Translations under genes and position numbers: made by a program | Shown: in pieces, positions 5,933 to 43,423 of the stretch | Layout of the letters: the number at the start of each line of letters is the position of its first letter | Numbering within the stretch: position 1 is the stretch's first letter | Notes under the pieces: model-generated | Told to the model about the DNA's origin: nothing | The model's database searches: none | Seen by the model: the letters and a program-made list of their open reading frames with translations, nothing else | Assembly (NCBI GenBank): GCA_947569245.1 | Contig: CANORV010000002.1 | Coordinates: 1-43,423, forward strand | DNA: 43,423 bases | From: an uncultured Mycoplasmatota bacterium | GTDB taxonomy: Bacteria > Bacillota_I > Bacilli_A > RF39 > UBA660 | Direction of reading: 5' to 3'

Positions 5933-5934
5933 TT

Positions 5935-11643: not shown

Positions 11644-12586
11644 CTGTTAGATAAAAAAGAATAGATATAATGATTGACGATATAATTACATGAAGAATTC
11701 TAGCATATAAAAAATCATTATATTTTATTTTTGTATCAGAAATAATACTTAGTATTTGCATATGAACACTAAAACCTCCAAAAGAGATGATGGCAGTCAT
11801 TAAAATAGCACGTGAAATAATTGATATTTGTAGATTTGAAACAAAAATCAAGCCACCTGTCATTTCTAAGATACATGATGATGTTTGTTTGATAAGGTTT
11901 GAAATAGCAAATGTTGAGATAATAGAATTAATTATTAAAAAAATAGTTATGATTCCAAGTAGAAGTGATAATGTTTTTATAGCGTCAGTTACAGAAAGAG
12001 TGATATTTTCTCCTAAAGACTTATTTGAACCTAGTTGATTTAAGGCTTTTTTTAGAGATACTTTTTCTTTTTTATATGCAATTTTTCTTTTAAATATAAT
12101 AGCTATAACAAAGTTTCCTAAATAATGACTTACTAGAATTAATAATCCAAGTTTTGTATCTTGAAGTAGAAGACTTCCGATAGTTCCAATTATAAATAGT
12201 GGGTTTGAAAAATGAGTAAATTTGATTAAGTAAGAAGCATCCTCTAATGAAATTTGCTTGTTATTTAGTAGTTCTCTTATATATTTACTACTTGAAGGGA
12301 AACCTGCTATCATACTAATTATTAAAATAAATGAACTACTTCCTGGAAGAGAAAAGTATTTGGCTGTTTTATTTTTTAAAAGTTCTCCCATAAAGGATGG
12401 AAAATTATAATTTACTAAAAGATTACTTATTACAAACATTGGAAAAAGGGTAGGAAATACTTTATTTTTCCAAAGAGTTATACCAAGTATTGCACTGTCT
12501 ATGACGTTTTTTGAATTTAGTAAAATAGCTATAGTTAATGTCAATAAAATGCCAACTATAATAGTATTTATTGTTTTTTCTTTCAT
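11633..12586 (-). CDS. ylbJ: Sporulation integral membrane protein YlbJ-like (nucleoside-recognition/Gate domain family)
   Basis: Polytopic 317-aa membrane protein. It lies divergent from a ylbL-like gene, as in Bacillus. Confidence 0.55.
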   Translation of the reverse strand: MKEKTINTIIVGILLTLTIAILLNSKNVIDSAILGITLWKNKVFPTLFPMFVISNLLVNYNFPSFMGELLKNKTAKYFSLPGSSSFILIISMIAGFPSSSKYIRELLNNKQISLEDASYLIKFTHFSNPLFIIGTIGSLLLQDTKLGLLILVSHYLGNFVIAIIFKRKIAYKKEKVSLKKALNQLGSNKSLGENITLSVTDAIKTLSLLLGIITIFLIINSIISTFAISNLIKQTSSCILEMTGGLIFVSNLQISIISRAILMTAIISFGGFSVHMQILSIISDTKIKYNDFLYARILHVIISSIIISILFYLTATF

Positions 12587-13645: not shown

Positions 13646-13815
13646 ACAAATTATATAAGTAAGAATTTTAAATAAGGTTGTTTAGTTGTCATGGCTATTT
13701 TAATTAAATAGATTTTGATAAAAATAATTACTGATGTAGATTTCTATTAACCTTATTTTTTATTTTTGGTTATTACTTTCATATTTGATATTTTTTTTAA
13801 AAATTGTCTATTTTC

Positions 13816-13844
13816 TTGCATGTAGTACATATTCAATGTATAAT
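13816..13844 (+). promoter_or_regulatory. sigma-A type promoter for mutS
   Basis: TTGCAT (13816-13821), 17-nt spacer, TATAAT (13839-13844). Confidence 0.6.
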
Positions 13845-13863
13845 ATTTTTAGGTGAAGTAGTA

Positions 13864-17110: not shown

Positions 17111-18376
17111 ATGCAGGAAAAATATATAACAGTTACACAGTTGACTAGGTATATTAAATTTAAAATTGATAATGATGAAAATTTGAATATTGTTTTTTTA
17201 AAGGGAGAAATATCTAATTTTAAAGCACATAGTAGAGGACATTTTTATTTTACATTAAAGGATGAAAATTCACGGATTAATGCTATTATGTTTGCATCAA
17301 GTGCCAATCGTATAAATTTTACTCCAATTGATGGAATGAAAGTTATGATTGTCGGAAAAGTTAGTGTTTATGAAGCTAATGGTGGATATCAAATATATGT
17401 TAATGAAATGATTGAGGATGGTATTGGAAATCTTTATTTAGAATTTGAAAAATTAAAGAAAAAACTAGCAAGTGAAGGTTTATTTGATAAAGAAAAGAAA
17501 AAGCCAATACCAAAATTTCCTAGGACTATTGGTATTGTTACGGCCCCAACAGGTGCTGCTATTCGAGATATTTTGTCGACGATTAAAAGAAGATGGCCGA
17601 TTGCTAGGACAATTCTTTTTCCTGCATTAGTTCAGGGATCTGATGCTGCAAAATCAATAGTTAAGCAAATAGAAAAAGCTAATACTTATGATATAGATGT
17701 TCTAATTGTTGGAAGAGGTGGTGGCTCAATTGAAGATTTATGGTGCTTTAATGAGGAAATAGTAGCTAGAAGTATTTATAATTCATATGTTCCAATAATT
17801 AGTGCTGTTGGACATGAGGTTGATTTTACTATTAGTGATTTTGTTGCAGATTTAAGAGCTCCAACTCCAACAGGTGCAGCGGAAATGGCTGTTCCTAATA
17901 TGGTTGATTTTGATAATTATTTAAAGCAAGTTAAGATTAGACTTAATAAAGCTTTTATGAATAATATTAAAATTAAAAAAGAGAAATTTAATGCTATTAG
18001 AGATAGTTATATTTTAAAAAATCCACTTTCTATATATGAAATCAAAGAACAGAAATTTGATAATTTATTTGAAAGGTTACAGCTTGCATCTACTTCTTAT
18101 ATATATAAAAACAAAAATAATTATTTAGCAATTAATGATAAACTTAAGATTGTTATACAAAAAAATTTGGATTATAATAAAAATAGATTTTTAGTATCAA
18201 TTAATAAACTTGAAGCATTAAATCCTTTGCTTGTAATAAAGCGTGGATATTCAATTATAAAGAAAAATGATGTGGCAGTGGCAAGTATAAATTCACTAAA
18301 AAAGGGAGATAATATAAATATTGAATTAATGGATGGAGAAGTTAATGCTAATATAGTAGGAGTAAAAAAAGTATGA
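17111..18376 (+). CDS. xseA: Exodeoxyribonuclease VII large subunit
   Basis: N-terminal OB-fold region ITVTQLTRYIK...GEISNFK, catalytic region GIVTAPTGAAIRD ... GRGGGSIEDLWCFNEE and a coiled-coil tail. It follows nusB as in Bacillus. Confidence 0.93.
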   Translation: MQEKYITVTQLTRYIKFKIDNDENLNIVFLKGEISNFKAHSRGHFYFTLKDENSRINAIMFASSANRINFTPIDGMKVMIVGKVSVYEANGGYQIYVNEMIEDGIGNLYLEFEKLKKKLASEGLFDKEKKKPIPKFPRTIGIVTAPTGAAIRDILSTIKRRWPIARTILFPALVQGSDAAKSIVKQIEKANTYDIDVLIVGRGGGSIEDLWCFNEEIVARSIYNSYVPIISAVGHEVDFTISDFVADLRAPTPTGAAEMAVPNMVDFDNYLKQVKIRLNKAFMNNIKIKKEKFNAIRDSYILKNPLSIYEIKEQKFDNLFERLQLASTSYIYKNKNNYLAINDKLKIVIQKNLDYNKNRFLVSINKLEALNPLLVIKRGYSIIKKNDVAVASINSLKKGDNINIELMDGEVNANIVGVKKV

Positions 18377-18924: not shown

Positions 18925-18941
18925 AATAGTAAACTGTTATT
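18925..18941. repeat. 17-bp inverted repeat, arm 1 (AATAGTAAACTGTTATT)
   Basis: Exact reverse complement of 20406-20422. It overlaps the transposase stop codon. Confidence 0.9.
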
Positions 18942-20193
18942 AGGTATTCTGCAAAGTAATGTTGTAACCTAAATTAGTTAAATAAGAAATCATTTCTTCA
19001 GGAGTATTTTGAATATTTTTATGAGACTTAAAATTTCTATACATAAGATTTTCAAATTTTTGATAATCAAAAACTTCACCAGTAAGTAAAATATGATAAA
19101 TACTTGTAAGTAATAATCTTGCAATAGCAATAATAGCTTTCTTGTGACCGCGTCTTCTTTTTAAAGACTCATATCTAGCTTTAATATAAGGACAAGATTT
19201 ATCTTTAATGGCACATAAAGCACATTGAACAAGCAAAGGTTTAATATAAATTCCTGCTTTGGTAATTCTAACAGATTTCTTTTTCTTAGCAGATTCATTA
19301 CATCTAGGAGTAAGACTGGCCCAAGAACAAAGATGTTTATCATCAACAAAAGTATTCATATTTGTACCAATTTCTGCTATAATAAATATCGCTGATATTT
19401 CTTTTATACCAGGAACTGTTAAAAGAAGATTAATTTCAGTTGAATATTGAATTGCAAGTTTTAAAATTTGCTCTTCTAATTCATCGATGCATTTATTAAT
19501 TGAATCATAATGTTTTAGAATAATATTCATTTTTGATGATTGAGATTCATCAAAATTACTATTGATAGATTTCAAAATCTCTTCAGGTGATGATTTCAAA
19601 TGACCATGCATTAATGGTGTAATATCTTTTAGAGTTAAATTTGGACTAGAAAGCATTAACTTTAGGATTGATTGAGATGTTTTGCCGAAAACATCACTTA
19701 CAACATTAGCAATTTGAACATTAGACATAGTAAGAGAATTTTGAAATCTATTTTTTTCTGAAGAACGAGCGTTGATTAGCTTATTTCTATACCGCATCAA
19801 ATCTCTCAATTGTCTAATATCTGCTGGTGGCATAAACGAAGGTTCAACTAAGCCATGCTTAAACATATCTGCAATCCAAATAGAATCTTTCTTGTCAGTT
19901 TTCTTTCCTGGTATTGATCTAACATATTTAGGATGAGTAATAATGCATTTGCATTTTTCTTCTAAAATATTAAAAACTGGAATCCAATACTTACCAGTAG
20001 ATTCCATACAGACATCTAAAGTGTCATTAGAAACTAACCAATCACGGCATTTTATCAATTCTTCAGTAAAAGTATTAAAAGATTTAGTTTGGTAATCAGT
20101 AATATCATGTTCGTTAGTTTTAGCAATAGTTACAACAATAATCTTTTTATGAACATCAATACCTGCACAATTTCTGTTAACAATCTTTAACAT
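18940..20193 (-). CDS. IS110-family transposase (DEDD/RuvC-like N-domain plus Tnp C-domain)
   Basis: Motifs CAGIDVHKK, MESTGKYW and KTDKKDSIWIA, with the C-terminal segment SVRITKAGIYIKPLLVQCA. The ATG at 20193 is preferred (GAAAGGAA 8 nt upstream), because the listed longer start has no RBS. Confidence 0.88.
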   Translation of the reverse strand: MLKIVNRNCAGIDVHKKIIVVTIAKTNEHDITDYQTKSFNTFTEELIKCRDWLVSNDTLDVCMESTGKYWIPVFNILEEKCKCIITHPKYVRSIPGKKTDKKDSIWIADMFKHGLVEPSFMPPADIRQLRDLMRYRNKLINARSSEKNRFQNSLTMSNVQIANVVSDVFGKTSQSILKLMLSSPNLTLKDITPLMHGHLKSSPEEILKSINSNFDESQSSKMNIILKHYDSINKCIDELEEQILKLAIQYSTEINLLLTVPGIKEISAIFIIAEIGTNMNTFVDDKHLCSWASLTPRCNESAKKKKSVRITKAGIYIKPLLVQCALCAIKDKSCPYIKARYESLKRRRGHKKAIIAIARLLLTSIYHILLTGEVFDYQKFENLMYRNFKSHKNIQNTPEEMISYLTNLGYNITLQNT

Positions 20194-20425
20194 AAACATT
20201 TTCCTTTCTAAAAATATTTTGTTAAAGGGCTTTGACTGAAAATTCTCAACTAGAAAATAACAAGAAATGGTTTTCACATAGATAAGGTTCCGTGCTCAAA
20301 AAGGCAACACTCATTTGTACACCGAGAATAATCGACACATATAATTATACGGGTTTAAAGTTATACTTTAACACCACTCACCTTGCCGTGCTCTGTAGTA
20401 TGCCCAATAACAGTTTACTATTATA
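20194..20425 (-). ncRNA. Candidate IS110 bridge (guide) RNA / structured 5' leader
   Basis: ORF-free stretch between a TATAAT box (minus strand, 20420-20425) and the transposase ATG. It is visibly GC-richer than the flanks. The octamer CCGTGCTC occurs twice (20290-20297 and 20386-20393), and there is a small hairpin at 20355-20371. Confidence 0.35.
20406..20422. repeat. 17-bp inverted repeat, arm 2
   Basis: Exact reverse complement of 18925-18941. It abuts the minus-strand TATAAT box. Confidence 0.9.
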
Positions 20426-20839: not shown

Positions 20840-21835
20840 ATGAAATTAAAAAAAAGAATTTTATTTAATTTAATTCTTGTTGTAATGTTGTTATTGATTC
20901 CACTTAACACTTTTGCTTATAGTAAGTATTTAATTCCTGGAGGGGAAAATATTGGAATCCAAGTTAATAATAAATATATTACTGTTGTTGGATTTTATGA
21001 AGTTGATAATAAATATATTGCTAAGGATGCAGGATTTAATGTTGGTGATAAAATACTAAAGATAAATGATCAAGATATTCAGTCGATGAATGATATGGTG
21101 AGTAGTATAAATGATAGTATGAATCGCTCAGCTTTAGATGTTTTAGTATTAAGGAAAAATAAAAAATATAATATTAATTTAAATATTTTTAAGGATAATG
21201 ATGGTGTTATTAAAACTGGACTTTACGTTAAAAACCAAATCAGTGGTATTGGTACGCTTACTTATATTGATCCTAGCACTAATAAGTTTGGAGCTTTAGG
21301 ACATGAAATTGTTGAAAAGGCTACATTAGAAAAAGTTGAAATTAAAAATGGTACAATTTTTAAATCTGATATTACAGGAATAAATAAGAGTGTTGATGGT
21401 ACACCTGGTGAAAAAAATGCAAAATTTTATAGTGATGATGTTTATGGAAATATTACTTTAAATAAACATTCAGGTATATATGGTATTTATAGTGGTAAAT
21501 TACCGAATAGGAACGCTATTGAAGTGATGGACGAAGAAGATGTTCAAGTAGGTAAGGCTACAATTAGAACAGTGATAAAAGATGATACTGTTGAAGAATT
21601 TGAAATAAAAATACTAGAACTTGATTACTCTAGTGATACTAAAAATATTTTGTTTGAAATAGTCGATGAGAGACTACTTGATTATACTGGAGGAGTTGTT
21701 GCTGGTATGAGTGGTAGTCCGATTATTCAAAATAATAAAATTGTTGGGGCCGTTAATTATGTTGTTGTAAATAAAGTTAATAAGGGATATGGAATCTTTA
21801 TTACTAATATGTTAGATGGAAATGAAGAGGATTAA
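20840..21835 (+). CDS. spoIVB: SpoIVB peptidase (S55 sporulation signalling serine protease)
   Basis: Signal anchor, PDZ segment (GDKILKINDQDI), catalytic His context GTLTYIDPSTNKFGALGH and catalytic Ser context GMSGSPII. Confidence 0.85.
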   Translation: MKLKKRILFNLILVVMLLLIPLNTFAYSKYLIPGGENIGIQVNNKYITVVGFYEVDNKYIAKDAGFNVGDKILKINDQDIQSMNDMVSSINDSMNRSALDVLVLRKNKKYNINLNIFKDNDGVIKTGLYVKNQISGIGTLTYIDPSTNKFGALGHEIVEKATLEKVEIKNGTIFKSDITGINKSVDGTPGEKNAKFYSDDVYGNITLNKHSGIYGIYSGKLPNRNAIEVMDEEDVQVGKATIRTVIKDDTVEEFEIKILELDYSSDTKNILFEIVDERLLDYTGGVVAGMSGSPIIQNNKIVGAVNYVVVNKVNKGYGIFITNMLDGNEED

Positions 21836-22691: not shown

Positions 22692-23315
22692 ATGCAAAAG
22701 TTTAAAAGATATAAGGACAACCTTTATAAGCAAAAAAGACGTTATTTATTTTTATTATTAATTTCTTTAATTGGTATGTTTATTGGAATAATTTACTTTT
22801 TTTACTTGTCTAAAGCAAATAAGGAAATAGTCTTTGAACAATTACGTAATGTGTTTAAGATGATTGAAGAAAACACAATTGATTATAATAGTTCTTTATT
22901 TAATGGAATTTGTTCTAATTTAATTACTTGTTTTTTGGTATGGGTTTTGGGTGTTTCAATTGTTGGAATTCCATTTATTTTGCTGTTTTTGTTCTATAAA
23001 GCTTTTGTAATAGGTTTATCTATTTCATCTATTATTTCATGCTATGGAATAAAAGGAATTTTTGGTGCTATTTTATATATTTTTCCTCATAAAATTTTAT
23101 TTCTTGTTGTTGATATATTACTTGTATTTTATGCAGTTGGTTTTTCTGTTAAATTAATTAAATATTTGTTTTTTAAGATAAATATTAATTTTAAGGATGT
23201 CTTTCATAAATATTTAAAAATATTAGGTATTTCGTGTTTTTCTTTGATTTTTCTTTCTATTTATGAATGTTATATTGCAACTTTTATTTTAAAGTTATTT
23301 ACTTTTTTAATTTAA
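22692..23315 (+). CDS. spoIIM: Stage II sporulation protein M (SpoIIM family membrane protein)
   Basis: About 207 aa with 5 TM segments. The N-terminal segment YLFLLLISLIGMFIGIIYF and the overall layout are typical of SpoIIM. Confidence 0.65.
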   Translation: MQKFKRYKDNLYKQKRRYLFLLLISLIGMFIGIIYFFYLSKANKEIVFEQLRNVFKMIEENTIDYNSSLFNGICSNLITCFLVWVLGVSIVGIPFILLFLFYKAFVIGLSISSIISCYGIKGIFGAILYIFPHKILFLVVDILLVFYAVGFSVKLIKYLFFKININFKDVFHKYLKILGISCFSLIFLSIYECYIATFILKLFTFLI

Positions 23316-23414: not shown

Positions 23415-24521
23415 ATGAAAAAAGTTATTGTTGGTATGTCAGGTGGAGTCGATAGCAGTGTTGCAGCCATTATTTTAATGAATCAAGGTTACCAAGTTGA
23501 AGGTTTATTTATGCGTAATTGGGATGCTATGGTTAATGGTGATGTGCTTGGTAATCCTAGTCTGAATAATAGTATTTGTCCACAGGAAGAAGATTATAAT
23601 GATGCTCTTGCAGTTTGTCAAAAACTTGGGATAAAGCTTCACAGGATTGATTTTGTAAAGGAATACTGGGATAATGTTTTCGTTTATTTTTTGGATGAGT
23701 TGAAGAAAGGAAGAACTCCAAATCCTGATATTATGTGTAATAAATATATAAAGTTTGATTATTTTATTCGAGAAGCAAAAAAACTTGGTGCTGATTATAT
23801 TGCAACTGGGCATTATGCTAGAATTATAGATGGCCAGTTGTCTAGAAGTATTGATAAGAATAAAGATCAAACATATTTCTTATCACAACTTACTAAGGAG
23901 CAGCTTAAAAATGTATTATTTCCAATTGGAGATCTTGAAAAGTCTGAGGTTCGAAAAATAGCTTCGGAGTATGGATTAATTACAGCAAAAAAGAAAGATT
24001 CTACAGGAATCTGCTTTATTGGTGAGAGAAACTTTAAAAATTTCCTTAAGAATTATTTACCTAATAAAAATGGAGATATTATTGATATTAGTTCTATGAA
24101 GAAGGTTGGAACTCATATTGGTCTTATGTATTATACAATAGGGCAGAGAAGAGGACTTGATATTGGTGGTACTAGAGATAGAATGTTTGTTGTTGGAAAA
24201 AATTTAAAGGATAATATTTTGTATGTTGCTGAAGGTGAAGATAATAAGTTTTTAATTTCTGATAGTTGTTTTTTAGAAATGGTTAATTTTAATACTGATT
24301 TAAGGCCTAATAAATTAACGGCTAAATTTAGATATCGTCAAGATGATTATCCAGTCACTTTGGAATATTTAGATAATGGGGAAATTAAAGTTAATTACAA
24401 TAATATAAAATCTGTTACTCCAGGACAAGCTTGTGTATTTTATTTAGGTAGTAAGTGTATTGGGGGAGGTATTGTTAGAGAGGTCTGTAAAGATAATAAA
24501 AAAATTTGGTATTTATTGTAA
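23415..24521 (+). CDS. mnmA: tRNA 2-thiouridine(34) synthase MnmA
   Basis: PP-loop VGMSGGVDSSVAA, TPNPDIMCNKYIKF, ATGHYAR, KDQTYFL and GICFIGE. Confidence 0.95.
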   Translation: MKKVIVGMSGGVDSSVAAIILMNQGYQVEGLFMRNWDAMVNGDVLGNPSLNNSICPQEEDYNDALAVCQKLGIKLHRIDFVKEYWDNVFVYFLDELKKGRTPNPDIMCNKYIKFDYFIREAKKLGADYIATGHYARIIDGQLSRSIDKNKDQTYFLSQLTKEQLKNVLFPIGDLEKSEVRKIASEYGLITAKKKDSTGICFIGERNFKNFLKNYLPNKNGDIIDISSMKKVGTHIGLMYYTIGQRRGLDIGGTRDRMFVVGKNLKDNILYVAEGEDNKFLISDSCFLEMVNFNTDLRPNKLTAKFRYRQDDYPVTLEYLDNGEIKVNYNNIKSVTPGQACVFYLGSKCIGGGIVREVCKDNKKIWYLL

Positions 24522-24593: not shown

Positions 24594-25361
24594 ATGGAAA
24601 AATTAAACAAAGTGTTAACAGAACTTGGTGTGTCAAAGGTACGATTGGCAAAATACCTTGGTGTTTCAAGACAAATGTTATATAATTATTTAGGTCAAGA
24701 TACATTTGCTAGTTGGCCAAAAGAAAAATCAATGAAGGTTATGTGTTTATTAGGAATAAAAGACGCAAAAGAACTTGATGATATTAAAATTACTGGTGAA
24801 TATATAATTGAGGTTGAAAATCGTTTAAATGAGGGTGTTAAGGACATTACTAGTAAAGAGGTTCTTGCTGATTTAAAGGGATTCAATAAGAAAGAACAAG
24901 AATTATTATCAGATATTATTAATTTGTTAAAGGAAAAATTATCCGAGGACAAGACAAAAGATGCTTATAATAGTTTTAGATATTTATATCATTTTTTACA
25001 ATCGATGGAGAATACTAAAGAGTTAAAATATATACTTGCTTATATGTCTAAATCAATGGGATTTATTGAACCTAATGAATTCGTTTTTAATGAAAACCAA
25101 CAATTTTATTTTGAAAGTATATTGTTTTCAGCTATGACTTTATATAATAATGGTGGTGCATCAAAGGCTAAAATTGCTGATACTCATAAAAGGTTTGTTC
25201 AGGAAATTGAACATAAAAAAGAGGAGAGGCTTAGCCGTACTCAGGAGTTAAATACTGCAAAAGTTCAGGCTTTAAGGGAACTTGGTTATTCAGAAATTAA
25301 TAATGAAAATGCAAAAGAGGTACTTGATAAAATAGCTGAAATTCAATCTAGAAAGGTTTAG
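24594..25361 (+). CDS. Helix-turn-helix (XRE-like) DNA-binding protein with an uncharacterised helical C-terminal domain
   Basis: The N-terminal segment LNKVLTELGVSKVRLAKYLGVSRQMLYNYL is a classic HTH. RBS GGGAGG upstream. The remaining ~190 aa have no motif I recognise. Confidence 0.6.
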   Translation: MEKLNKVLTELGVSKVRLAKYLGVSRQMLYNYLGQDTFASWPKEKSMKVMCLLGIKDAKELDDIKITGEYIIEVENRLNEGVKDITSKEVLADLKGFNKKEQELLSDIINLLKEKLSEDKTKDAYNSFRYLYHFLQSMENTKELKYILAYMSKSMGFIEPNEFVFNENQQFYFESILFSAMTLYNNGGASKAKIADTHKRFVQEIEHKKEERLSRTQELNTAKVQALRELGYSEINNENAKEVLDKIAEIQSRKV

Positions 25362-25368
25362 TTTAATT

Positions 25369-25860
25369 ATGGATAGTAATAGAAATAAAGTAATAATAAT
25401 TCCAAAAGAGAGAGACGGAAATTTTCCTGTTTTTTCAGCATCTATTAGAGATAAATCAAGTGATAATTTTTATGGTAATCATATTGATGCTATTAGAAAA
25501 TATATGATGGATAATTGTATTCCAATCTCTAATGATAGATATATTGATCTTACTAGGGTATTATTAACTGGTGCAGTTATATTTGAGTTTTCTGTTTTTG
25601 ATTTTATTTCTATTCCTTTCACATTGGATGATAGACAGCATGATTTATTGTTATCTTACTTAAATGATGATGATTCCTTAAAAAGCTCTAGTATTGCTGT
25701 TCATGAAATAAATAAGACTGGAGATGAACATTCTTTAAGTAGATATTCAGTTGAATTAGAAAGTGAAATGGAATATTTAAATACTGTGGTTGATAGAAAA
25801 TGGTTTGCTTATAAAGTGAATCAAGTAACAAAGAGGGTTACTAATAAAACATCAAAATAA
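25369..25860 (+). CDS. Hypothetical protein (163 aa), apparently co-transcribed with the HTH gene
   Basis: It starts 8 nt after the HTH stop. The RBS is weak and no family motif is recognised. Confidence 0.45.
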   Translation: MDSNRNKVIIIPKERDGNFPVFSASIRDKSSDNFYGNHIDAIRKYMMDNCIPISNDRYIDLTRVLLTGAVIFEFSVFDFISIPFTLDDRQHDLLLSYLNDDDSLKSSSIAVHEINKTGDEHSLSRYSVELESEMEYLNTVVDRKWFAYKVNQVTKRVTNKTSK

Positions 25861-25904
25861 ATTTTTAGATGTATAATTACTAATATTAATAAAAAAAATG
25901 TAGA

Positions 25905-25932
25905 AGTTAACATAACATCAATTATACGAAGT
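25905..25932 (-). other. dif: Candidate chromosome dimer resolution site dif (XerC/XerD target)
   Basis: The minus strand reads ACTTCGTATAA-TTGATG-TTATGTTAACT (11-6-11). As I recall it, B. subtilis dif is ACTTCCTAGAA-TATATA-TTATGTAAACT, which gives arm matches of 9/11 and 10/11. The site sits in a 400-bp gene-free spacer next to the coding-strand switch. Confidence 0.7.
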
Positions 25933-26264
25933 TAAAAGTATAATGCTTTTTTAACAATAAATGCAGATTTATTATAACTTTATAAAAACCATTATTAATG
26001 ATTACTAGATATACACATAGGCAAAAATTATATATTTTTATAAAGTCACTCTTTATTTGATTTAAAATTAATTTACTTAATAATAGTACTATATCGTTTA
26101 AAAACTCTTTCATAATTAGAACTAAAAACAAACTTAGTTAAATCTAATTCAATTTCAATGGATGATAAAAAATTTATGTTCATCAATATGATAATGATAC
26201 ATCGACTATATATTTGAAAGAACAAATATTAAAGAAGCATATACAAAAAATAAAGGAGTAAAGA

Positions 26265-26759
26265 ATGATTAAAGTAATCAAAGAACTTATAAATGAAATA
26301 ATTAAATTCTTAGCAAAATTATTAAATGCACAAGATGAAAACAATAAACAAGAAACAAAACAAGAAAATTTATATAAAGCAAAAAATTTAATGACAAAAA
26401 ATGAATTAGTATTTTATAATAAATTAAAAGAACTAGAATATGAATATAAAATAGTTCCACAGTTAAATCTAGGAACAGTTATTCAAAAGACAACAAAAGG
26501 ATACAGAAATGAACTTTTCAAAAATATAGACTTTGCTATATTTAGCAATGATTTTAGTAAGTTGCTACTATTAGTAGAATTGAATGATAGTACACATAAG
26601 CAATCAAAAAGAAGAAAAAGAGATAAAAGAGTAAAAGAGATATGTAGTAAAGCTAACATAAAATTGATAACATTTTATACAACGTATCCAAATGAAAAAG
26701 AATATGTTGTTAATAGAATAAAACAAGAAATAAAAAAAGAAAAGGAGCCTATTATTTAG
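26265..26759 (+). CDS. DUF2726-like (restriction-endonuclease-like fold) protein
   Basis: The pattern TKNELVFYNKL ... VPQLNL ... IDFAIF ... LLVELNDSTH ... RDKRVKEICSKANIKLITF fits the DUF2726/NERD-like layout. RBS AAGGAG upstream. Confidence 0.55.
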   Translation: MIKVIKELINEIIKFLAKLLNAQDENNKQETKQENLYKAKNLMTKNELVFYNKLKELEYEYKIVPQLNLGTVIQKTTKGYRNELFKNIDFAIFSNDFSKLLLLVELNDSTHKQSKRRKRDKRVKEICSKANIKLITFYTTYPNEKEYVVNRIKQEIKKEKEPII

Positions 26760-26781
26760 ACTCTTTTAAGTTAAAAGAAAC

Positions 26782-26810
26782 ATTTAAAATACCATCAAAT
26801 TATATATACT
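26782..26810 (-). other. Degenerate dif-like site in direct orientation with dif
   Basis: The plus strand reads ATTTAAAATAC-CATCAA-(A)-TTATATATACT, against dif on the plus strand AGTTAACATAA-CATCAA-TTATACGAAGT. The central hexamer is identical, the arms match 8/11 and 7/11, and there is one extra nucleotide. Confidence 0.3.
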
Positions 26811-26995
26811 TAACTATTTTAAATTATTTATTTAAAATTATATATTAAATTTCTCTTTATTATATTATTATATTGAATTATTATTAAGGAAAATTTTTTG
26901 TTTTATACACTTATATTTCCTTTATGCAGGAAAATAATTTAGAAATCTGTATAGTTCTTTAATATTTAAACCAAACTATTATTGAGGTGATTAAT

Positions 26996-27184
26996 TTGAG
27001 TAAAAAGGAATGCAATAAAGATAATATTAACAAGCAAAAAATTGGGTGTGCTGTTGATGCTTGCAAATATAATGATGAAAGTTCTAATTGCTGTACATTA
27101 AAGGAAATAAAAGTCTCTTGTGATTGTGGATGTGCAGATTGCAAAGATGATACTATTTGTTCTAGTTTTGAATGTAAAAAGTAA
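26996..27184 (+). CDS. DUF1540-like cysteine-rich small protein
   Basis: The Cys pattern GCAVDACKYN...CCTLKEIKVSCDCGCADC...TICSSFEC fits DUF1540. The TTG at 26996 is preferred because GAGGTGA lies 5 nt upstream, and the listed GTG start sits inside that RBS. Confidence 0.55.
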   Translation: MSKKECNKDNINKQKIGCAVDACKYNDESSNCCTLKEIKVSCDCGCADCKDDTICSSFECKK

Positions 27185-27224
27185 GCCATAAAATAGAGTA
27201 GAAAAAGTTATATACTATCCTACC

Positions 27225-28385
27225 CTATTTTAATTTTTGTAAAAATGATTCACCAATAATTGGTTTTGGTTGTTCAAAGTTTTCAGCAATTGTTGCAGCA
27301 ATGTCAGCCATAGATTCGAATACTTCTAAACGTTTTGGTTCTAAAAATGATCTACTAAATATTATTACTGGGACGTTTTCTCTGGTATGTTCATCTTTTA
27401 TAGTGAAATCACATCCATGATCTGCTGTGATAATCAATAAATCATCATTATTTAAGTGATTTAACAACATAGGTATCTCTACATCTAATTCTTCAATAAG
27501 TCTTCCATATTCCTCTATATCGTGTTTATGAGCTGCTTCATCAAAATCAGGAAGCGTACAAAGGCATAAACCAGTAAAATTTTTCCCCATTATATCTGAT
27601 AGTTTATTTACTGCCTCATTATTACTTGATGCTTTCATTATTTTACTTATTCCAACACTTGCAACAATATCATTTATTTTTCCAATTGATATAACATTGT
27701 ATTTATTTTCTTTTAATGATGTTAAAACGCTTGGCATTGGTGGATTAACAGCATAGGCTCTCATTTCGTTGGTAAATTTAAAATTTCCTGCTTTTCCATT
27801 AAATGGTCTTGCAATTACTCGTCCAACTTTAAAGTTATTGTCCAAGGTAATTTTTCTTATTGTTTCACAAAAATCGTATAATTTGGCAACTGATATAACA
27901 TCTTCATGGGCTGCTATATTAATATTTGAACCATTTGAAGTATATAAAATTAATGATTTGTTACTTACTTGTCTTTCTCCAAGCTCATTAATTATATCAC
28001 TTCCGATGGCATTTTTATTTCCAATTGTTTCTTTTTTTGTATACTTTTCTATTTCATCGATTAATTCTCTTGGAATACCACTTTGACTAAAATCTTTCAA
28101 ATCGTTTTCACTTTTAATACCAATTAGTTCATAATGTCCAGTGATACTATCTTTTCCTGGATTGGTTGGTCTTGCAATTGTATAATATGCCTCGACTGAT
28201 TGATTTTCGTCCATATTTATAGTATTTAAAAATCCTAGTTTTTGGAGATTAGGAATAAATAAATCATAATTTTCTCGAACGTGTCCAAGGGTATTACATC
28301 CCGTATCGTCATAATTTATTGCATCTACTGCTTCCCCTACTCCTAATGAATCTAAAATAACTAAGAATATTCTTTTAAATTGCAT
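27225..28385 (-). CDS. deoB: Phosphopentomutase
   Basis: N-terminal FKRIFLVILDSLGVGE, a metal-binding core and ITADHGCD near the C-terminus. It lies downstream of xerD, as in Listeria and Bacillus. Confidence 0.9.
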   Translation of the reverse strand: MQFKRIFLVILDSLGVGEAVDAINYDDTGCNTLGHVRENYDLFIPNLQKLGFLNTINMDENQSVEAYYTIARPTNPGKDSITGHYELIGIKSENDLKDFSQSGIPRELIDEIEKYTKKETIGNKNAIGSDIINELGERQVSNKSLILYTSNGSNINIAAHEDVISVAKLYDFCETIRKITLDNNFKVGRVIARPFNGKAGNFKFTNEMRAYAVNPPMPSVLTSLKENKYNVISIGKINDIVASVGISKIMKASSNNEAVNKLSDIMGKNFTGLCLCTLPDFDEAAHKHDIEEYGRLIEELDVEIPMLLNHLNNDDLLIITADHGCDFTIKDEHTRENVPVIIFSRSFLEPKRLEVFESMADIAATIAENFEQPKPIIGESFLQKLK

Positions 28386-28387
28386 AT

Positions 28388-29317
28388 TTACTCTTCCTCT
28401 CTTGGATGATAACTTTTATAATCATCTCGTACTTGCTTATTTGATATATGGGTATATATTCTAGTGGTTGATATATCACTATGTCCTAAAAGTTCTTGTA
28501 TTACACGTAAATTGGCACCGCGTTCTAGCATATGAGTTGCAAATGAATGCCTTAGTGTGTGTGGTGATATATTTTTTTCAATATTTTTCTTTTTTAATTC
28601 AGCCTTTAATATTTTAAAAAAACCTTGTCTGGTCATTTTGTTACCATGATTATTTAAAAATATATGCTCACATCTTCTGTTTTTATCAAGTTTTTCTCTT
28701 GTTTTTAAGTATTCATTTAGTGAATCAATAATGTATTCTCCTATTGGAACAATTCTTTCTTTTTTGCCTTTTCCAGTGCATCTTAATGTACATTCATTAA
28801 AATCTATATCGTGAAACGTTAGGTTTAACATTTCACTTATTCTAAGTCCTGTTCCATATAATAATTCTAACATAGCTTTGTTGCGGTAGTCAAATACACT
28901 TTCACATTCAAAAGATAAAAGTCTATCTACTTCTTCTGTAGTCAATACATCTGGTAGTTGTTTTTTTATTTTTGGTCTTTTAACTGATGATGCTACATCT
29001 TTATCTAAGTACTTAATTTTTAAAAGATATTTATGAAAATTTTTTATAGCGGTAAGTTTATGAGCAATAGAAGTAGTTTTTTCATTGTTATTCTTTAAAT
29101 ATTCCATATACGTAATAATATCCTTAACAGATACATCTTTTAGGTTGCTTATCTTTTTTTTCTGTAAGTATATTAAATATAATTTTAAGTCATTTTCATA
29201 AGAATTTTCTGTGTTTATAGAAAGATTTCTTTCTAAAACTAAGTGATTACAGTAATCTTCTAAAAGCATTTTATAATCAATATTTAAAATTTTAAATTCA
29301 TCAATTTTTGTATTCAT
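28388..29317 (-). CDS. xerD: Site-specific tyrosine recombinase XerD (XerC/D family)
   Basis: Motifs GLRISEMLNL, HTLRHSFATHMLERGANLRVIQELLGH and TRIYTH (catalytic Tyr). The XerD rather than XerC assignment rests on the xerD-deoB linkage. Confidence 0.75.
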   Translation of the reverse strand: MNTKIDEFKILNIDYKMLLEDYCNHLVLERNLSINTENSYENDLKLYLIYLQKKKISNLKDVSVKDIITYMEYLKNNNEKTTSIAHKLTAIKNFHKYLLKIKYLDKDVASSVKRPKIKKQLPDVLTTEEVDRLLSFECESVFDYRNKAMLELLYGTGLRISEMLNLTFHDIDFNECTLRCTGKGKKERIVPIGEYIIDSLNEYLKTREKLDKNRRCEHIFLNNHGNKMTRQGFFKILKAELKKKNIEKNISPHTLRHSFATHMLERGANLRVIQELLGHSDISTTRIYTHISNKQVRDDYKSYHPREEE

Positions 29318-29405: not shown

Positions 29406-30638
29406 ATGGAAAAATTATTAGCTAGTATTTTGGCACCACAGTGTATTGATGATGTTATAGGTCAAAAACATTTACTTGGTGAAAATAAAATACTAAGAAA
29501 TTTAATAGAAAATAAAAAGTTGTTTTCGATGATTTTGTATGGTAGACCTGGTATTGGAAAAACATCAATTGCTAAAGCTATCGTTAATACACTTAAAATT
29601 AGATATCGTTTTTTAAATGCAACAATTAATAATAAGAAGGATTTTGATGTTGTTGTCGAGGAAGCTAAAATGTATGATGGTATTGTTTTAATAATGGATG
29701 AAATTCATAGATTAAATAAAGATAAACAGGATTTACTTTTGCCAGCATTAGAAAGTGGATTAATAACTTTGATTGGTATGACAACTGCTAATCCTTTTCA
29801 TGCAATTAATCCTGCTATTAGAAGTAGATGTCAGTTATTTGAATTGCATGAATTGGATGATGATGACATTATGGAAGGTTTGAAAAGAGCAGTTCAAAAT
29901 GATACTCTTGATGGTATTATTGTCGATGATGGCTGTTTAGAATACATTACTAAACTTTCAGCAAATGATTTAAGATTTGCTTATAATCTTTTAGAAGTAG
30001 CTTTTTACTCTACTAAAGATAAGCATATAACAATGGATGTTTTAACAAGCATTAATAATAAACCTGCATTTTTTCATGATAAAGATGGTGATGGTTATTA
30101 TGATGTACTTAGTGCTTTTCAAAAATCTATTAGAGGAAGTGATGTAAATGCTTCTTTACATTATTTAGCCAGGTTAATTGTTAGTGGTGATTTGGAGAGT
30201 ATTTTTAGAAGAATGGCAGTAATTGCCTATGAAGATATTGGTCTTGCTAATCCATCTATTGGACCGAAAGTTATGGCAGCAATTGAAGCTTGTCGTTTAA
30301 CAGGATTACCAGAAGCTCGAATTCCTCTTGGGACAATTGTTGTTGAGATGGCTTTATCTCCTAAATCAAATACTGCACATATTGCCTTAGATGAAGCTAT
30401 TAGAGATGTTGAAACTGGTAGATGTGGTGCTATTCCTGAATATTTAAGAGGTGGTGGAACAAGTGATTATAAATATCCCCATGATTATAAAGGAAGTTAT
30501 ATTCCTCAGCAATATCTCCCAGATAATTTGAAACATAAAAAGTATTATAATCCTAAAAATGAGTCAAAATTTGAATGTAGTCTTTATAATATAGATAAAT
30601 ATTTGGATAAAATAAAAAAGGATAATAATGTCATGTAA
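29406..30638 (+). CDS. rarA: Replication-associated recombination protein A (RarA/MgsA AAA+ ATPase)
   Basis: Walker A YGRPGIGKTSIA, Walker B LIMDEIHR, and the MgsA C-domain YYDVLSAFQKSIRGSD...AYEDIGLANP. Confidence 0.92.
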   Translation: MEKLLASILAPQCIDDVIGQKHLLGENKILRNLIENKKLFSMILYGRPGIGKTSIAKAIVNTLKIRYRFLNATINNKKDFDVVVEEAKMYDGIVLIMDEIHRLNKDKQDLLLPALESGLITLIGMTTANPFHAINPAIRSRCQLFELHELDDDDIMEGLKRAVQNDTLDGIIVDDGCLEYITKLSANDLRFAYNLLEVAFYSTKDKHITMDVLTSINNKPAFFHDKDGDGYYDVLSAFQKSIRGSDVNASLHYLARLIVSGDLESIFRRMAVIAYEDIGLANPSIGPKVMAAIEACRLTGLPEARIPLGTIVVEMALSPKSNTAHIALDEAIRDVETGRCGAIPEYLRGGGTSDYKYPHDYKGSYIPQQYLPDNLKHKKYYNPKNESKFECSLYNIDKYLDKIKKDNNVM

Positions 30639-30692: not shown

Positions 30693-31826
30693 TTAATTAT
30701 TTTCCTTTGTAAATTTTTCAAACTTGCTTAATTCACCTGTTTTTAAATCCGTTTTATTTAATTCTTCAATTAATTTCTTTTGTTGTCTATCTAATTTATT
30801 TGGTATTACAACTTTCAATACAATATACATATCTCCAACTTTTTTATTGGTTTTATTGTTGACACCTTTTCCTTTGATTCGGTGTTTATCTCCACCTTCA
30901 CTTCCAGCTGGTATGGTTAATTTTACATTTCCATATAGTGTAGGTATTTCTTTTTTAGTTCCTAATATTGCTTCTGTAATTGTAATTGGCACTTCTAAAT
31001 AAATATCGTCTTCTAATCTTTCGAAGAATTCATGCTCTTTAATTATAAATTCAATATATAAATCACCATTTGGTCCACCGTAATAACCACAGGCACCTTT
31101 ACCTGCAATACGTAGTCTGCTTGATTCATCGACTCCAGCTGGTACAGTAACCTCAATTTTTTTATGTTCTCTTACACGCCCTTCACCACGACATTTTTTA
31201 CATGTTGTCGAATAAATTTTTCCCTTTCCAGAACATTTTGGACATGTTGTTTTAGTTAAGAAAGTTCCTAACATAGTATGTTGTTCAGAGGTAATAGTTC
31301 CACTACCATGACATTTATCACAGGTTTCTTCACCATGCCCTCCTGCTCCATCACATTCACTACATTCTTCCATAACATCTAGTTCTAAATCTTTTTTTAC
31401 TCCAAAGATACTTTCTAAAAAAGTTAATTTCATTCTTACTAGAGAGTCGTTTCCCTTTTGAGGTCTTTTTTTACCACCTGCTGCCGATCTAGAACCAAAT
31501 CCCATTCCTCCAAATATATTATCAAATATATCTGTATAATCGAAATCACCAAAATCAAAACCAGAGAAGCCACCACCAAATGGATTTGAGCCACCAGCTC
31601 CACCTTGGAAAGCAGCATGGCCAAATTGATCATATTGACGACGTTTATCTTCGTCTGATAAAACGGAATATGCTTCTTGAACTTCTTTGAACTTAGCTTC
31701 GGCATCTTTTTCTTTACAGACATCTGGATGATATTGTTTAGCTAATCTTCTAAAGGCACTTTTAATATCTGCTTGACTAGCACTTTTGTCGACTCCTAAG
31801 ACTTCGTAATAATCTTTTTTGTTCAT
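30693..31826 (-). CDS. dnaJ: Molecular chaperone DnaJ
   Basis: J-domain DYYEVLGV...YHPD, a G/F-rich linker and four CxxCxGxG zinc-finger repeats (CSECDGAG, CDKCHGSG, CPKCSGKG, CKKCRGEG). Confidence 0.97.
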   Translation of the reverse strand: MNKKDYYEVLGVDKSASQADIKSAFRRLAKQYHPDVCKEKDAEAKFKEVQEAYSVLSDEDKRRQYDQFGHAAFQGGAGGSNPFGGGFSGFDFGDFDYTDIFDNIFGGMGFGSRSAAGGKKRPQKGNDSLVRMKLTFLESIFGVKKDLELDVMEECSECDGAGGHGEETCDKCHGSGTITSEQHTMLGTFLTKTTCPKCSGKGKIYSTTCKKCRGEGRVREHKKIEVTVPAGVDESSRLRIAGKGACGYYGGPNGDLYIEFIIKEHEFFERLEDDIYLEVPITITEAILGTKKEIPTLYGNVKLTIPAGSEGGDKHRIKGKGVNNKTNKKVGDMYIVLKVVIPNKLDRQQKKLIEELNKTDLKTGELSKFEKFTKENN

Positions 31827-31873
31827 GCTCTATATTCTTCCTTTCTAAATATATTTTACAGTTTATACACGAG

Positions 31874-31897
31874 AAAGTTCTAGTTACCTAGAACTTT
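31874..31897 (-). terminator. Intra-operon hairpin between dnaK and dnaJ (attenuator or processing site)
   Basis: Perfect 10-bp stem AAAGTTCTAG / CTAGAACTTT with a 4-nt loop. The U-tail on the minus strand is poor, so termination is likely partial. Confidence 0.45.
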
Positions 31898-31910
31898 TGA
31901 TTGTGTAGTA

Positions 31911-34383
<2,473 letters not shown>

Positions 34384-34394
34384 GATATCTCCTT

Positions 34395-35405
34395 CTAATT
34401 TTCCAAGTTAGATTTTATGTATTCTAAGAGGCTAACAACACGATCATAGTCCATTCTTTTTGGACCAACTATTGCTATTGTTCCTTCTTCTTTGCTAGTA
34501 TGATATTTGGTTTTTACAATAGTCATATCATCATCGATATTAGATTCTTTTCCAATGTAAACTTTTATGTTCTTATTGTTTTCTTCAATGTCTTCGATAT
34601 CTTCGATGTAGTCTATTTTCTTCATAATATCTTCTTCATCTAACTTAGTGAAAATGTTTTTAACTTTATCAATATTATTAAATTCTGGTTGCTTTAAAAT
34701 ATTATTTTTGCCTACAATATTGACATTTTTACTCGAAAAGTCTTTAAATACGTTATAAATTGTATTATAAACTATTTCGTGTTCTTTGACATACCTACCA
34801 ATAATTGGCTTTATTTCATATTCTAATTTACTACTTATTTCATCAATTGGTGTTCCTACTATTAATTCATTTATTAATGAAATAATCTTTTTTATTTCAT
34901 CTAATGAAACATTTTCAAATTCAATTGTTTTGTGTTCCACGTGTCCTTTATCAGTTACGACGATAATAATCATTTGTTTATTGTCTATTGGAACAACATT
35001 AATTTCTTTTAGTCTATTCTCATGTGATGCATTTCCAAGGACAATTGTTGTATAATTTGTCATGTCAGCAATAAGTTGAAGACTTTTGGTTATACAATCA
35101 GATAATTGTAATTGTTGATTGTTAAAAATGATTTGTAATTTTAACATATCTTCTCCACTTATTTCCTTTGGATTCATTAAATTATCAACATAGTAACGGT
35201 ATCCTTGTTCACTTGGAATTCTTCCTGATGAAGTATGTGTCTTTTCTAATAAACCAATCTCTTCTAAGGTTGCCATTTCACTTCTTACTGTAGCACTAGA
35301 ACATTTTAGTGTTTTACATATCAATTTTGAGCTTACTGGTTTGGCAGACTTTATATGCTCACCTACTATTAACTTAAGCAATTTTTTCTGTCTTTCTGTA
35401 AGCAT
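34395..35405 (-). CDS. hrcA: Heat-inducible transcription repressor HrcA
   Basis: Winged-helix N-terminus MLTERQKKLLKLIV...SSATVRSEMATLEEIGLLEKTHTSSGRIPS. The ATG at 35405 is preferred because AGGAGGTG lies 7 nt upstream. CIRCE operators lie upstream. Confidence 0.93.
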   Translation of the reverse strand: MLTERQKKLLKLIVGEHIKSAKPVSSKLICKTLKCSSATVRSEMATLEEIGLLEKTHTSSGRIPSEQGYRYYVDNLMNPKEISGEDMLKLQIIFNNQQLQLSDCITKSLQLIADMTNYTTIVLGNASHENRLKEINVVPIDNKQMIIIVVTDKGHVEHKTIEFENVSLDEIKKIISLINELIVGTPIDEISSKLEYEIKPIIGRYVKEHEIVYNTIYNVFKDFSSKNVNIVGKNNILKQPEFNNIDKVKNIFTKLDEEDIMKKIDYIEDIEDIEENNKNIKVYIGKESNIDDDMTIVKTKYHTSKEEGTIAIVGPKRMDYDRVVSLLEYIKSNLEN

Positions 35406-35420
35406 TTTGACAGCACCTCC

Positions 35421-35447
35421 TAGCACTTCTTTTTCTCAAGTGCTAAC
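35421..35447 (-). promoter_or_regulatory. CIRCE operator 2 (HrcA binding site), downstream of the -10 box
   Basis: The minus strand reads TTAGCACTT-N9-AAGTGCTAG, against the consensus TTAGCACTC-N9-GAGTGCTAA. Confidence 0.8.
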
Positions 35448-37485: not shown

Positions 37486-37707
37486 TTACCTCATTATCTC
37501 CATAAAAGTTCTAATGAGTTCTATTTTTCTTTCTAATTCTTGCATCTTGTCTTTTGGTGTTATTTTGTAATACTCTTTCATTTTCTCTTCCATTTGTTTT
37601 ATACTTTCTGGGTTTCTATTTAATTCTTTGTACCAGTAGGAATTTTCCCTTAAAAAACGATATAGATTCGGATTATTTTTGATGGCAAATTGGGTAGCTA
37701 AATCCAT
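37486..37707 (-). CDS. ylbE: YlbE-like protein
   Basis: 73 aa. The segment NPNLYRFLRENSYWYKELNRNPES resembles the YlbE family. The start overlaps the ylbD-like stop (TAATG). Confidence 0.55.
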   Translation of the reverse strand: MDLATQFAIKNNPNLYRFLRENSYWYKELNRNPESIKQMEEKMKEYYKITPKDKMQELERKIELIRTFMEIMR

Positions 37708-38102
37708 TAGTCCTCAAAGTATTTATACATTGGTCTTGCTTCGTATGTTTGATTTTTAGGTGTTTCTTTTGAACTGTTTAAGTCTTGTACTAAGTTTATA
37801 GCTCTAGTAAGGCCATCTACTGCTTTTTTTACAGTATCTAAATCAATCGTTTTTACCATATTGAATAATTCTTTTAAGGATGTATCCCCTAAAAGTGATT
37901 GTTGTTTTGTGTAAGTATTGTTTGATGAAGTAGAGAAGTTATTTTGGGTGTTGTCTTTTAAAAATGGAGTCCAAACTGAACTATTTTCACCATACACATC
38001 GTACATTTCATAGAATTTTTGCCACGTCATACTATTATTGTTAATATGTTCTAGTAATGATGGGTTGTTTCTTACAAAAACTTTAAATGTTTCTTTAGAC
38101 AT
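37707..38102 (-). CDS. ylbD: YlbD-like putative spore coat protein
   Basis: The segment FKVFVRNNPSLLEHINNNSMTWQKFYEMYDVYGENSSVW resembles the YlbD N-terminal region. The ATG at 38102 is preferred because AGGTGA lies 5 nt upstream. Confidence 0.55.
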   Translation of the reverse strand: MSKETFKVFVRNNPSLLEHINNNSMTWQKFYEMYDVYGENSSVWTPFLKDNTQNNFSTSSNNTYTKQQSLLGDTSLKELFNMVKTIDLDTVKKAVDGLTRAINLVQDLNSSKETPKNQTYEARPMYKYFED

Positions 38103-43285: not shown

Positions 43286-43423
43286 TATAATCATCTCCTA
43301 GAACATTATAACAGATATTATAACGAAAAAAAAGAAGAGTGACAATATATTTACAAACTTTTTTAAAAGGTGAATTGTAAAAGTAAAAGCCAGAAAAATT
43401 TTATGTAACTATAGTGTAAGACA

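Follow-up and report, generated by a model that had tools for sequence, protein, structure and literature searches.

A probable chromosomal dif site in an uncultured spore-forming Bacilli lineage, occupied in some genomes by a filamentous-phage-like prophage and crossed by a strand bias that keeps its sign

The stretch of 43,423 nucleotides analysed here (the window; contig CANORV010000002.1 of assembly GCA_947569245.1, from an uncultured Mycoplasmatota bacterium) contains a 28-bp element of two 11-bp arms and a 6-bp central spacer, which is very probably the chromosomal dif site of this gut bacterium. We consider it highly likely that this one element is at the same time dif, the entry site of a prophage and a boundary within the terminus region, and that replication forks usually pass through it and meet no less than 17-25 kb further right. 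The dif call, first made in an annotation from the sequence alone (the first-pass annotation), has held and is strongly supported because the arms are those of published dif sites, because the arms occur once in each of 96 other assemblies, across phyla, because gene and skew boundaries converge at it in other genomes, and because a prophage without an integrase lies inside the 28-mer. The call rests on a natural recombination event and not on motif likeness alone.

On the plus strand, positions 25905-25932 read AGTTAACATAACATCAATTATACGAAGT, and the reverse complement, ACTTCGTATAA-TTGATG-TTATGTTAACT, has the layout of a dif site, with two 11-bp arms in imperfect dyad symmetry around a 6-bp spacer; sequence, strand and coordinates are exactly those first proposed. 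In the window the 28-mer is single at up to three mismatches, and it had 0 matches in 100 dinucleotide-preserving shuffles. The degenerate Firmicute dif pattern ACTTCNTANAA-N6-TTATGTWAAMT likewise gave one match with 0 mismatches in the window, where 0.00 were expected. Scored over the 22 arm positions, the runner-up 28-mer of the window reaches 16, which is chance level (the best shuffle scores were 15-19), and dif reaches 22. A second, degenerate dif at 26782-26809, after the DUF2726 gene, was considered (spacer 6/6, right arm 8/11) and rejected, as equally good matches occur elsewhere in the window. The surrounding AT-rich spacer had been described as about 400 bp long and free of any credible gene, and this is what was found: it measures 404 bp at 18.3% GC, its only open reading frames (ORFs) are of low complexity and at most 69 aa long, no Rfam family and no tRNA was detected in or near it, and the repeats in 25300-27400 are AT-rich noise.

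The XerD arm of Escherichia coli dif, which we take to be TTATGTTAAAT, agrees with TTATGTTAACT at 10/11 positions, and its XerC arm, as we assume it to read, agrees with the left arm at only about 7/11. The dif site of B. subtilis is ACTTCCTAGAATATATATTATGTAAACT (PMC3025954), to which the left arm is identical at 9/11 and the right arm at 10/11 positions, and the S. aureus dif sequence cited in the first-pass annotation is present in the supplement of the same paper. The Bacillus and Staphylococcus arms given there are correct (PMC3025954), as is the statement that at most two of 11 positions differ per arm, judged by B. subtilis. Both arms have also been published in identical form: ACTTCGTATAA is the left arm of the L. 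rhamnosus dif prediction (Kono et al., 2011; PMC3025954), and TTATGTTAACT is the right arm in B. anthracis, Desulfotomaculum reducens and others, with 33 occurrences in the supplement of Kono et al. (PMC3025954). In these published predictions, dif is only a few degrees away from the position where the skew shifts (PMC3025954).

A scan of ACTTCGTATAA-N6-TTATGTTAACT against one genome per species (185,579 species) returned 97 stretches with one match each, in 96 assemblies, as one metagenome-assembled genome (MAG) carries the site on two contigs. Hosts of the identical arms range from 22 to 73% GC and belong to Bacilli, Lactobacillaceae, Enterococcus, Mycoplasmatota, Omnitrophota, Armatimonadota and Longimicrobiales/Gemmatimonadota; the loci of the latter have 59-73% GC, and the AT-rich 22-mer is therefore not there by chance. 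The spacer varies over the 97 loci, TATATA being the commonest (25), with TTAATA in 8, TGTATA in 7 and TTGATG in two only (L059 and L103; loci and contigs are cited by our own L numbers where they need to be told apart). The complete 1,966-kb chromosome of Mycoplasma sp. P36-A1 carries the site at 975.4 kb (49.6%), and at 48 same-arm loci with at least 1.5 kb on each flank the raw GC skew was convergent in 39, divergent in two and of one sign in seven. About 40 loci of low-GC gut MAGs keep the order mnmA, hyp255, dif, deoB, xerD, rarA (also dnaJ and dnaK) at 65-76% nucleotide identity to the window; these MAGs are labelled uncultured Bacilli, Tenericutes, Erysipelotrichaceae or Candidatus Pelethosoma. 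Since the neighbourhood is common to about 40 relatives, the location of dif in the convergent gap is old.

Recombination at the 28-mer could be followed in close relatives. Contigs found by exact look-up of the XerD and DUF2726 proteins of the window are 99.9-100% identical to it; at least six of these near-identical contigs have an empty site, as does the window itself, and two are occupied (L001/L109, JGI 3300006217; L005/L112, JGI 3300006147). The 6.2-kb insert encodes a rolling-circle initiator (PF23343 REP_ORF2-G2P, 53 bits, cutoff 27.8; phrog_3419), a Zot/pI-type morphogenesis ATPase (PF05707, 30.2 bits, cutoff 20.3; phrog_197), a 72-aa membrane protein with a weak virion-protein match (phrog_2186, E = 0.0016), several small ORFs and a divergently transcribed HTH_3 repressor. 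No integrase or recombinase was found among the called genes, with ten proteins compared with PHROGs and six with Pfam. The predicted gene set, known here by its marker genes, is that of a filamentous (inovirus-like) phage. Its Rep protein has no relative in IMG/VR, and in the phage collection it matched only 'bajarodino' viruses from rodent faeces, at 29-35% identity.

At one junction (attL, ...CTTTTA ACTTCGTATAA TTGATG TTATGTTAACT TGTGTATTTT...) a perfect dif is followed by phage DNA, and at the other (attR, ...AACCTCTTTTTTAA TTGATG TTATGTTAACT TCTACATTTT...) phage DNA runs into the same spacer and right arm and then into the chromosomal flank. The dif-like copy in attR is CTCTTTTTTAA-TTGATG-TTATGTTAACT, with a degenerate left arm, and the same sequence is deduced for the phage attachment site attP. 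Comparison of the empty site with attL and attR of L001 gave a 21-nt core, TAATTGATGTTATGTTAACTT, common to the chromosome and the prophage attachment site, and from the way the junctions read, the crossover must have occurred inside it. Site-specific recombination at the 28-mer is seen indirectly, in the polymorphism of occupied and empty sites and in a crossover limited to the core, which includes the spacer; the prophage junctions are the strongest available sign that this recombination is of Xer type, the catalysis by Xer enzymes being presumed. Since the phage DNA of L005 is 100% identical to that of L001, the two integrations may not be independent. The dif 28-mer itself had 0 matches in the metagenome contig collection, which evidently lacks samples holding this organism.

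Integrative mobile elements exploiting Xer (IMEX) are defined as lacking an integrase, entering dif via a dif-like attP and leaving an intact dif and a crippled copy (PMC5357621), and on its gene content and junctions the insert qualifies as a putative IMEX. It resembles VGJphi, TLCphi and CTXphi of Vibrio cholerae and the gonococcal genetic island, which are integrase-less elements in dif with a working dif and a degenerate copy; the insert is filamentous-phage-like, at 6.2 kb. Unlike in those cases, it is hosted by a Gram-positive spore-forming bacterium that is uncultured. In TLCphi and the gonococcal island the XerC arm and the spacer are conserved and the XerD arm diverges (PMC5357621), whereas the attP deduced here retains the XerD arm together with the spacer, and it is the XerC arm that is degenerate.

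The first-pass annotation had also pointed to a xerD gene 2.5 kb from the site. The distance is 2,456 bp, and the protein passes the cutoff of the XerD equivalog model (TIGR02225, 341.1 bits, cutoff 329.6). The order dif, deoB, xerD is kept in about 25 related MAGs, with xerD at most 2.5 kb from the site, and this is a likeness to difSL/XerS of streptococci and lactococci and difH/XerH of Helicobacter and Campylobacter, where the recombinase gene is linked to its site throughout the clade. The XerD-like protein might thus act alone on both arms, as the recombinase of such a module; linkage of this kind is unusual, Kono et al. having placed xerD mostly near the origin (PMC3025954), many of the relatives are reduced-genome MAGs labelled Tenericutes or Mycoplasmatota, and no second xer gene occurs in the window. 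We nevertheless regard a single-recombinase system as improbable and rejected a difSL/XerS module in particular: the site is a canonical, asymmetric 28-mer and not a 31-bp site, its left arm is that of L. rhamnosus, which is among the XerCD-type dif predictions, the protein is classed as XerD and reaches 116 bits with the XerS model against a cutoff of 267, and a window of 43 kb makes a missing xerC uninformative. It is more improbable still that the 28-mer is a mere phage attachment site, or a relic of an earlier Xer-exploiting element, with the working dif elsewhere. Both arms match the consensus perfectly, as opposed to the degenerate left arm of attR, and the same site stands in the same gene neighbourhood in about 40 relatives and is the sole copy found in each of the 96 assemblies; these facts outweigh the lineage-specific, accessory nature of both immediate neighbours and the tendency of such integrations to generate extra dif-like copies, of which attR in L001 is an example. 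A functionless near-palindrome that arose by chance can be all but dismissed, even though AT-rich palindromes are common in DNA such as this spacer of 18% GC, since the shuffles contained no match and no score near that observed (15-19 against 22 of 22), and since genomes with as much as 73% GC have the identical arms and the prophage lies precisely inside the element.

By gene orientation, the site lies at a boundary that probably marks the terminus region. The strand asymmetry reported at first was borne out: nearly all genes to the left are on the plus strand, with three on minus (the T2SSE ATPase, the 317-aa ORF and the IS110 transposase), and nearly all genes to the right of 27225 are on minus, with the rarA-like gene alone on plus. 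Orientation converges at 27185-27224, and the maximum of the raw cumulative GC skew falls about 27-30 kb into the window. A terminus had been placed at this switch, and in so far as it concerned gene orientation and raw GC skew, which do switch at 26-27 kb, the claim stands; the third-codon, 4-fold and intergenic skews described below do not reverse there. At codon positions 1+2, G exceeds C on the coding strand whichever side a gene is on: the skew is +0.29 for plus-strand genes left of the site and +0.22 for minus-strand genes right of it. Because this G excess follows the coding strand, raw skew must flip wherever genes flip, and its sign change at the coding-strand switch is no evidence of fork convergence.

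Third-position skew was calculated in plus-strand terms, leaving out ATG and TGG codons. The plus-strand GC3 skew was +0.33 in left plus-strand genes (n = 21), +0.55 in left minus-strand genes (n = 2), +0.24 in right plus-strand genes (n = 3) and +0.45 in right minus-strand genes (n = 13); AT3 skew was negative in three of the four classes and about zero (+0.02) in the two left minus-strand genes. Counted on the coding strand, third-position G:C is 505:257 in left plus-strand versus 159:414 in right minus-strand genes (chi-square 194, p ~4e-44) and T:A is 3265:2329 versus 1692:2179 (p ~9e-45), with which 4-fold sites agree (p = 3e-8 and 2e-18, respectively). Right and left plus-strand genes are alike (p = 0.48), as are right and left minus-strand genes (p = 0.32). 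A binomial model returned a constant plus-strand term of 0.82 +/- 0.06 and a side term of 0.11 +/- 0.10, and a sign-flip (terminus) model was worse than the constant-strand model by 112 (GC3) and 93 (AT3) log-likelihood units. Intergenic GC skew, with the 20 nt before starts removed, was +0.19 +/- 0.05 left of the site and +0.11 +/- 0.08 right of it, where a mirror image would need -0.19. The plus strand keeps its excess of G and T on either side of dif, over at least 25 kb in the rightward direction. Contig L104 runs 10 kb past the window with glmM, SirA, tkt, a Big_2 protein and an M3 peptidase in the same orientation, and plus-strand GC3 skew in its genes beyond parE is +0.26, falling to about 0 only in the last gene.

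As a control, the same model was applied to 48 other dif loci. The symmetric term was within three standard errors of zero at 34 and significantly non-zero, with either sign, at 14; with 34 of 48 loci near zero, the constant-term test is therefore not trivially positive. Among the syntenic relatives in this set, L020 has a term of 0.76 and L066 one of -0.68. Six 8-kb loci of relatives (L020, L038, L049, L066, L032 and L093) have a strong third-position bias that does not change sign across dif but is positive or negative according to the species, as expected if the forks meet to the left or to the right of dif according to lineage; third-position skew in these 8-kb loci is too weak to place their termini, and they serve as a control only.

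Leading strands are richer in G than in C and in T than in A at weakly selected sites, and on this basis the plus strand bears a leading-type signature throughout the window. Forks would then run from left to right through dif, and they probably meet at least 17-25 kb further right. The convergent leading-strand pattern that had been taken as the signature of a terminus is thus absent from the mutational skew, the sign-flip model being worse by the margins given above. This agrees with published work in which termination takes place away from dif: Kono et al. reported termination near, not at, dif, with typical offsets of at most 1.4% of the genome (PMC3025954), and in B. subtilis without RTP the forks converge opposite oriC and not at dif (PMC13220808).

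That dif coincides with the replication terminus, with leading strands converging exactly at the 26-27 kb coding-strand switch, is in our judgement unlikely. Apart from the raw skew peak and the converging orientation, this reading can draw on the convergent raw skew at the site in most other genomes with this dif, and on purine-rich polar motifs whose strand preference reverses at the site (left against right, GAAGAAG is 6:1 against 0:9 and GGGNAGG 6:0 against 0:1). These motif counts are fully confounded with the coding strand, which they follow, and they were discarded as evidence of translocase orientation. Third-position, 4-fold and intergenic skews trimmed of ribosome-binding sites (RBS), of one sign on both sides and for at least 25 kb rightward, argue against it, as do the two model comparisons and the published termination near, not at, dif (PMC3025954, PMC13220808). 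Two other causes of an unflipped skew were also rejected. A recent inversion would carry coding-strand composition with it, and the genes on the right have coding strands of lagging type; a chimeric assembly joined at dif is contradicted by the junction itself, which recurs in six or more independent assemblies and in about 40 relatives with the same synteny.

Several points weigh against dif as a prophage entry site with forks meeting further right. Placing the forks assumes that synonymous G>C and T>A mark the leading strand, and few genes break the link between side and orientation, namely two on the left and three on the right. At least about 14 genes, including the dnaK operon, parC/parE and also xerD, would be head-on to replication, which is unusual in a Firmicute. 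For this genome, the uniqueness data cover the 43,423-nt window, and the skew data the window and contig L104. No xerC/codV gene was found in the 43 kb, an absence that says nothing because the window spans no more than that. The circular attP junction CTCTTTTTTAATTGATGTTATGTTAACTTGTGTATT was absent from the viral and metagenome contig collections and, with the episomal junction not found, attP is deduced from the two prophage ends only.

By analogy with the XerCD and CodV/RipX paradigm (PMC5357621), a recombinase of XerC/CodV type would bind ACTTCGTATAA and the XerD encoded 2.5 kb away would bind TTATGTTAACT, with strand exchange at the borders of the TTGATG spacer. Chromosome dimers would be resolved once a septal translocase of FtsK/SpoIIIE type had aligned the sister dif copies. 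The prophage may borrow the Xer enzymes of its host to integrate at dif. Because attP has a perfect right arm and spacer and a poor left arm, integration would restore a working dif as attL, on the DUF2726/deoB/xerD side, and the other copy, attR, should be a poor substrate; the intact attL would preserve dimer resolution after prophage entry. In this scheme dif would be a segregation boundary and not the point at which forks meet.

The architecture is that of E. coli dif (XerCD, FtsK) and of B. subtilis dif (CodV/RipX, SftA, SpoIIIE). Like the latter, the site is a 28-bp, 11-6-11 element with imperfect dyad symmetry in what is probably the terminus region of a Firmicute that forms spores, the window encodes a XerD/RipX orthologue, and in B. 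subtilis too the forks do not end at dif (PMC13220808). It differs from B. subtilis dif in its hexamer, TTGATG in place of TATATA, and in the linkage of xerD at 2.5 kb.

The orientation of dif differs among relatives. The XerC-type arm points toward mnmA in 38 syntenic loci and toward deoB in the window and five loci (L020, L026, L048, L059 and L103). A flip by point mutation is unlikely because the two arms differ at four positions, and the difference suggests a local inversion or replacement at dif. The MAG that carries the site twice (L057, CAKPAQ010000147; L094, CAKPAQ010000197) has two short contigs that both end in the dif 28-mer, with the same 10 nt on each flank; one contig includes the deoB side and the other the hyp255 side. 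The assembly breaks at dif, possibly due to an insertion polymorphism.

Both direct neighbours of dif are lineage-specific accessory genes that are absent from syntenic relatives. On the XerD-arm side, blastn matches in syntenic relatives end at about 25360 and leave the gene for the 163-aa protein uncovered, and in L114 this gene is shortened to 105 aa. On the XerC-arm side, the DUF2726-DUF1540 block is absent in relatives where deoB starts about 200-250 bp from dif (L032, L093), and in relatives without DUF2726/DUF1540 dif itself lies inside the convergent gap. Such accessory neighbours fit repeated traffic of mobile elements at dif.

The window as a whole carries chromosomal housekeeping genes of a low-GC (~27%) spore-former (Table 1). 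Sporulation genes are represented by those for a SpoIVB-like peptidase, SpoIIM, YlbD and YlbE, and by SirA on L104 (5418-5843); despite these, many of the closest syntenic relatives have been deposited as Tenericutes, Mycoplasmatota or uncultured Bacilli MAGs. In Firmicutes, lepA, the hemN-like gene, hrcA, grpE, dnaK and dnaJ are usually found together in a single cluster and in the same orientation. In the window they are divided between two opposed halves that flank dif, lepA and the hemN-like gene on plus (4127-7507) and hrcA-grpE-dnaK-dnaJ on minus, a pattern that an inversion spanning the dif region would produce. The IS110 transposase has a GC3 skew of -0.25 on the plus strand, against +0.3 to +0.75 in its neighbours, which suggests a recent insertion. 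Most independent assemblies (L105, L107, L108) break, like the window (43286-43423), about 140 nt upstream of parE; in the same place L106 (1-3401) has two acetate kinase genes and L104 (6318-7862) has glmM and an IS66 transposase, and the window appears to end, on its right, at a hot spot of strain-level rearrangement or of repeats.

Table 1. Features of the window and of the occupied contigs. Positions refer to the window unless a contig is named; scores are those of the profile searches.
Feature	Position	Strand	Remarks
lepA	4127-5932	+	
hemN-like gene	6392-7507	+	
T2SSE pilus-type ATPase	9102-10376	-	
317-aa ORF	11633-12586	-	
mutS	13804-16416	+	870 aa
xseA	17111-18376	+	
IS110-family transposase	18940-20277	-	
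SpoIVB-like peptidase gene	20840-21835	+	
spoIIM-like gene	22692-23315	+	
mnmA	23415-24521	+	
Hypothetical gene	24594-25361	+	
163-aa hypothetical gene	25369-25860	+	XerD-arm side of dif; no family match
Non-coding AT-rich spacer holding dif	25861-26264		404 bp, 18.3% GC
21-nt core TAATTGATGTTATGTTAACTT common to chromosome and prophage attachment site	25904-25924	-	Empty site compared with L001 attL/attR
dif, 28-bp Xer recombination site (very probable)	25905-25932	-	ACTTCGTATAA-TTGATG-TTATGTTAACT
Right XerD/RipX-type arm TTATGTTAACT	25905-25915	-	Sequence match to published arms
Central hexamer TTGATG, strand-exchange region	25916-25921	-	Same in deduced prophage attP
Left arm ACTTCGTATAA, putative XerC/CodV type	25922-25932	-	Assigned by homology (PMC5357621)
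DUF2726 gene	26265-26759	+	XerC-arm side; PF10881, 53.4 bits, above cutoff
DUF1540 gene	26987-27184	+	XerC-arm side; PF07561, 29.8 bits, above cutoff
Coding-strand switch, DUF1540 gene (+) meets deoB (-)	27185-27224		1.25 kb from dif; from ORF map
deoB	27225-28385	-	
xerD	28388-29317	-	TIGR02225 XerD equivalog, 341.1 bits, cutoff 329.6
rarA-like gene	29406-30638	+	
hrcA, grpE, dnaK, dnaJ	30693-35426	-	
rsmD	Right of 27225	-	
YlbD and YlbE coat-protein genes	37486-38102	-	
parC, parE	Right part of window	-	
6.2-kb prophage	L001 13414-19609 = L109 3440-9640; L005 from 10113		

A dif site is expected on any circular bacterial chromosome, and the one described here is in itself ordinary; what is gained is good support for dif in a gut lineage of Bacilli that is uncultured, low in GC and spore-forming. 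Two side results of moderate weight, the Gram-positive IMEX and the uncoupling seen in the skew, go beyond an ordinary dif. In the open-access literature searched, Xer-exploiting filamentous phages came all, or almost all, from Proteobacteria, and a broad inovirus survey is silent on dif. We put forward only tentatively, as a possibility that may well fail, that the segregation boundary is stably uncoupled from the meeting of forks in this lineage and that the prophage represents a class of Xer-exploiting elements, anchored by the XerD arm and the spacer, in Gram-positive spore-formers. If the uncoupling is true, a block of at least 25 kb with xerD, the dnaK operon and topoisomerase IV has long been replicated head-on; a one-sided bias of this kind, on either side of dif, also occurs in related genomes. 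If the prophage class is true, its attachment would be the mirror image of that of TLCphi and the gonococcal island, and such a case, from a Gram-positive spore-former and with the XerD arm retained in the attachment site, would broaden the picture of Xer exploitation and offer a simple test system.

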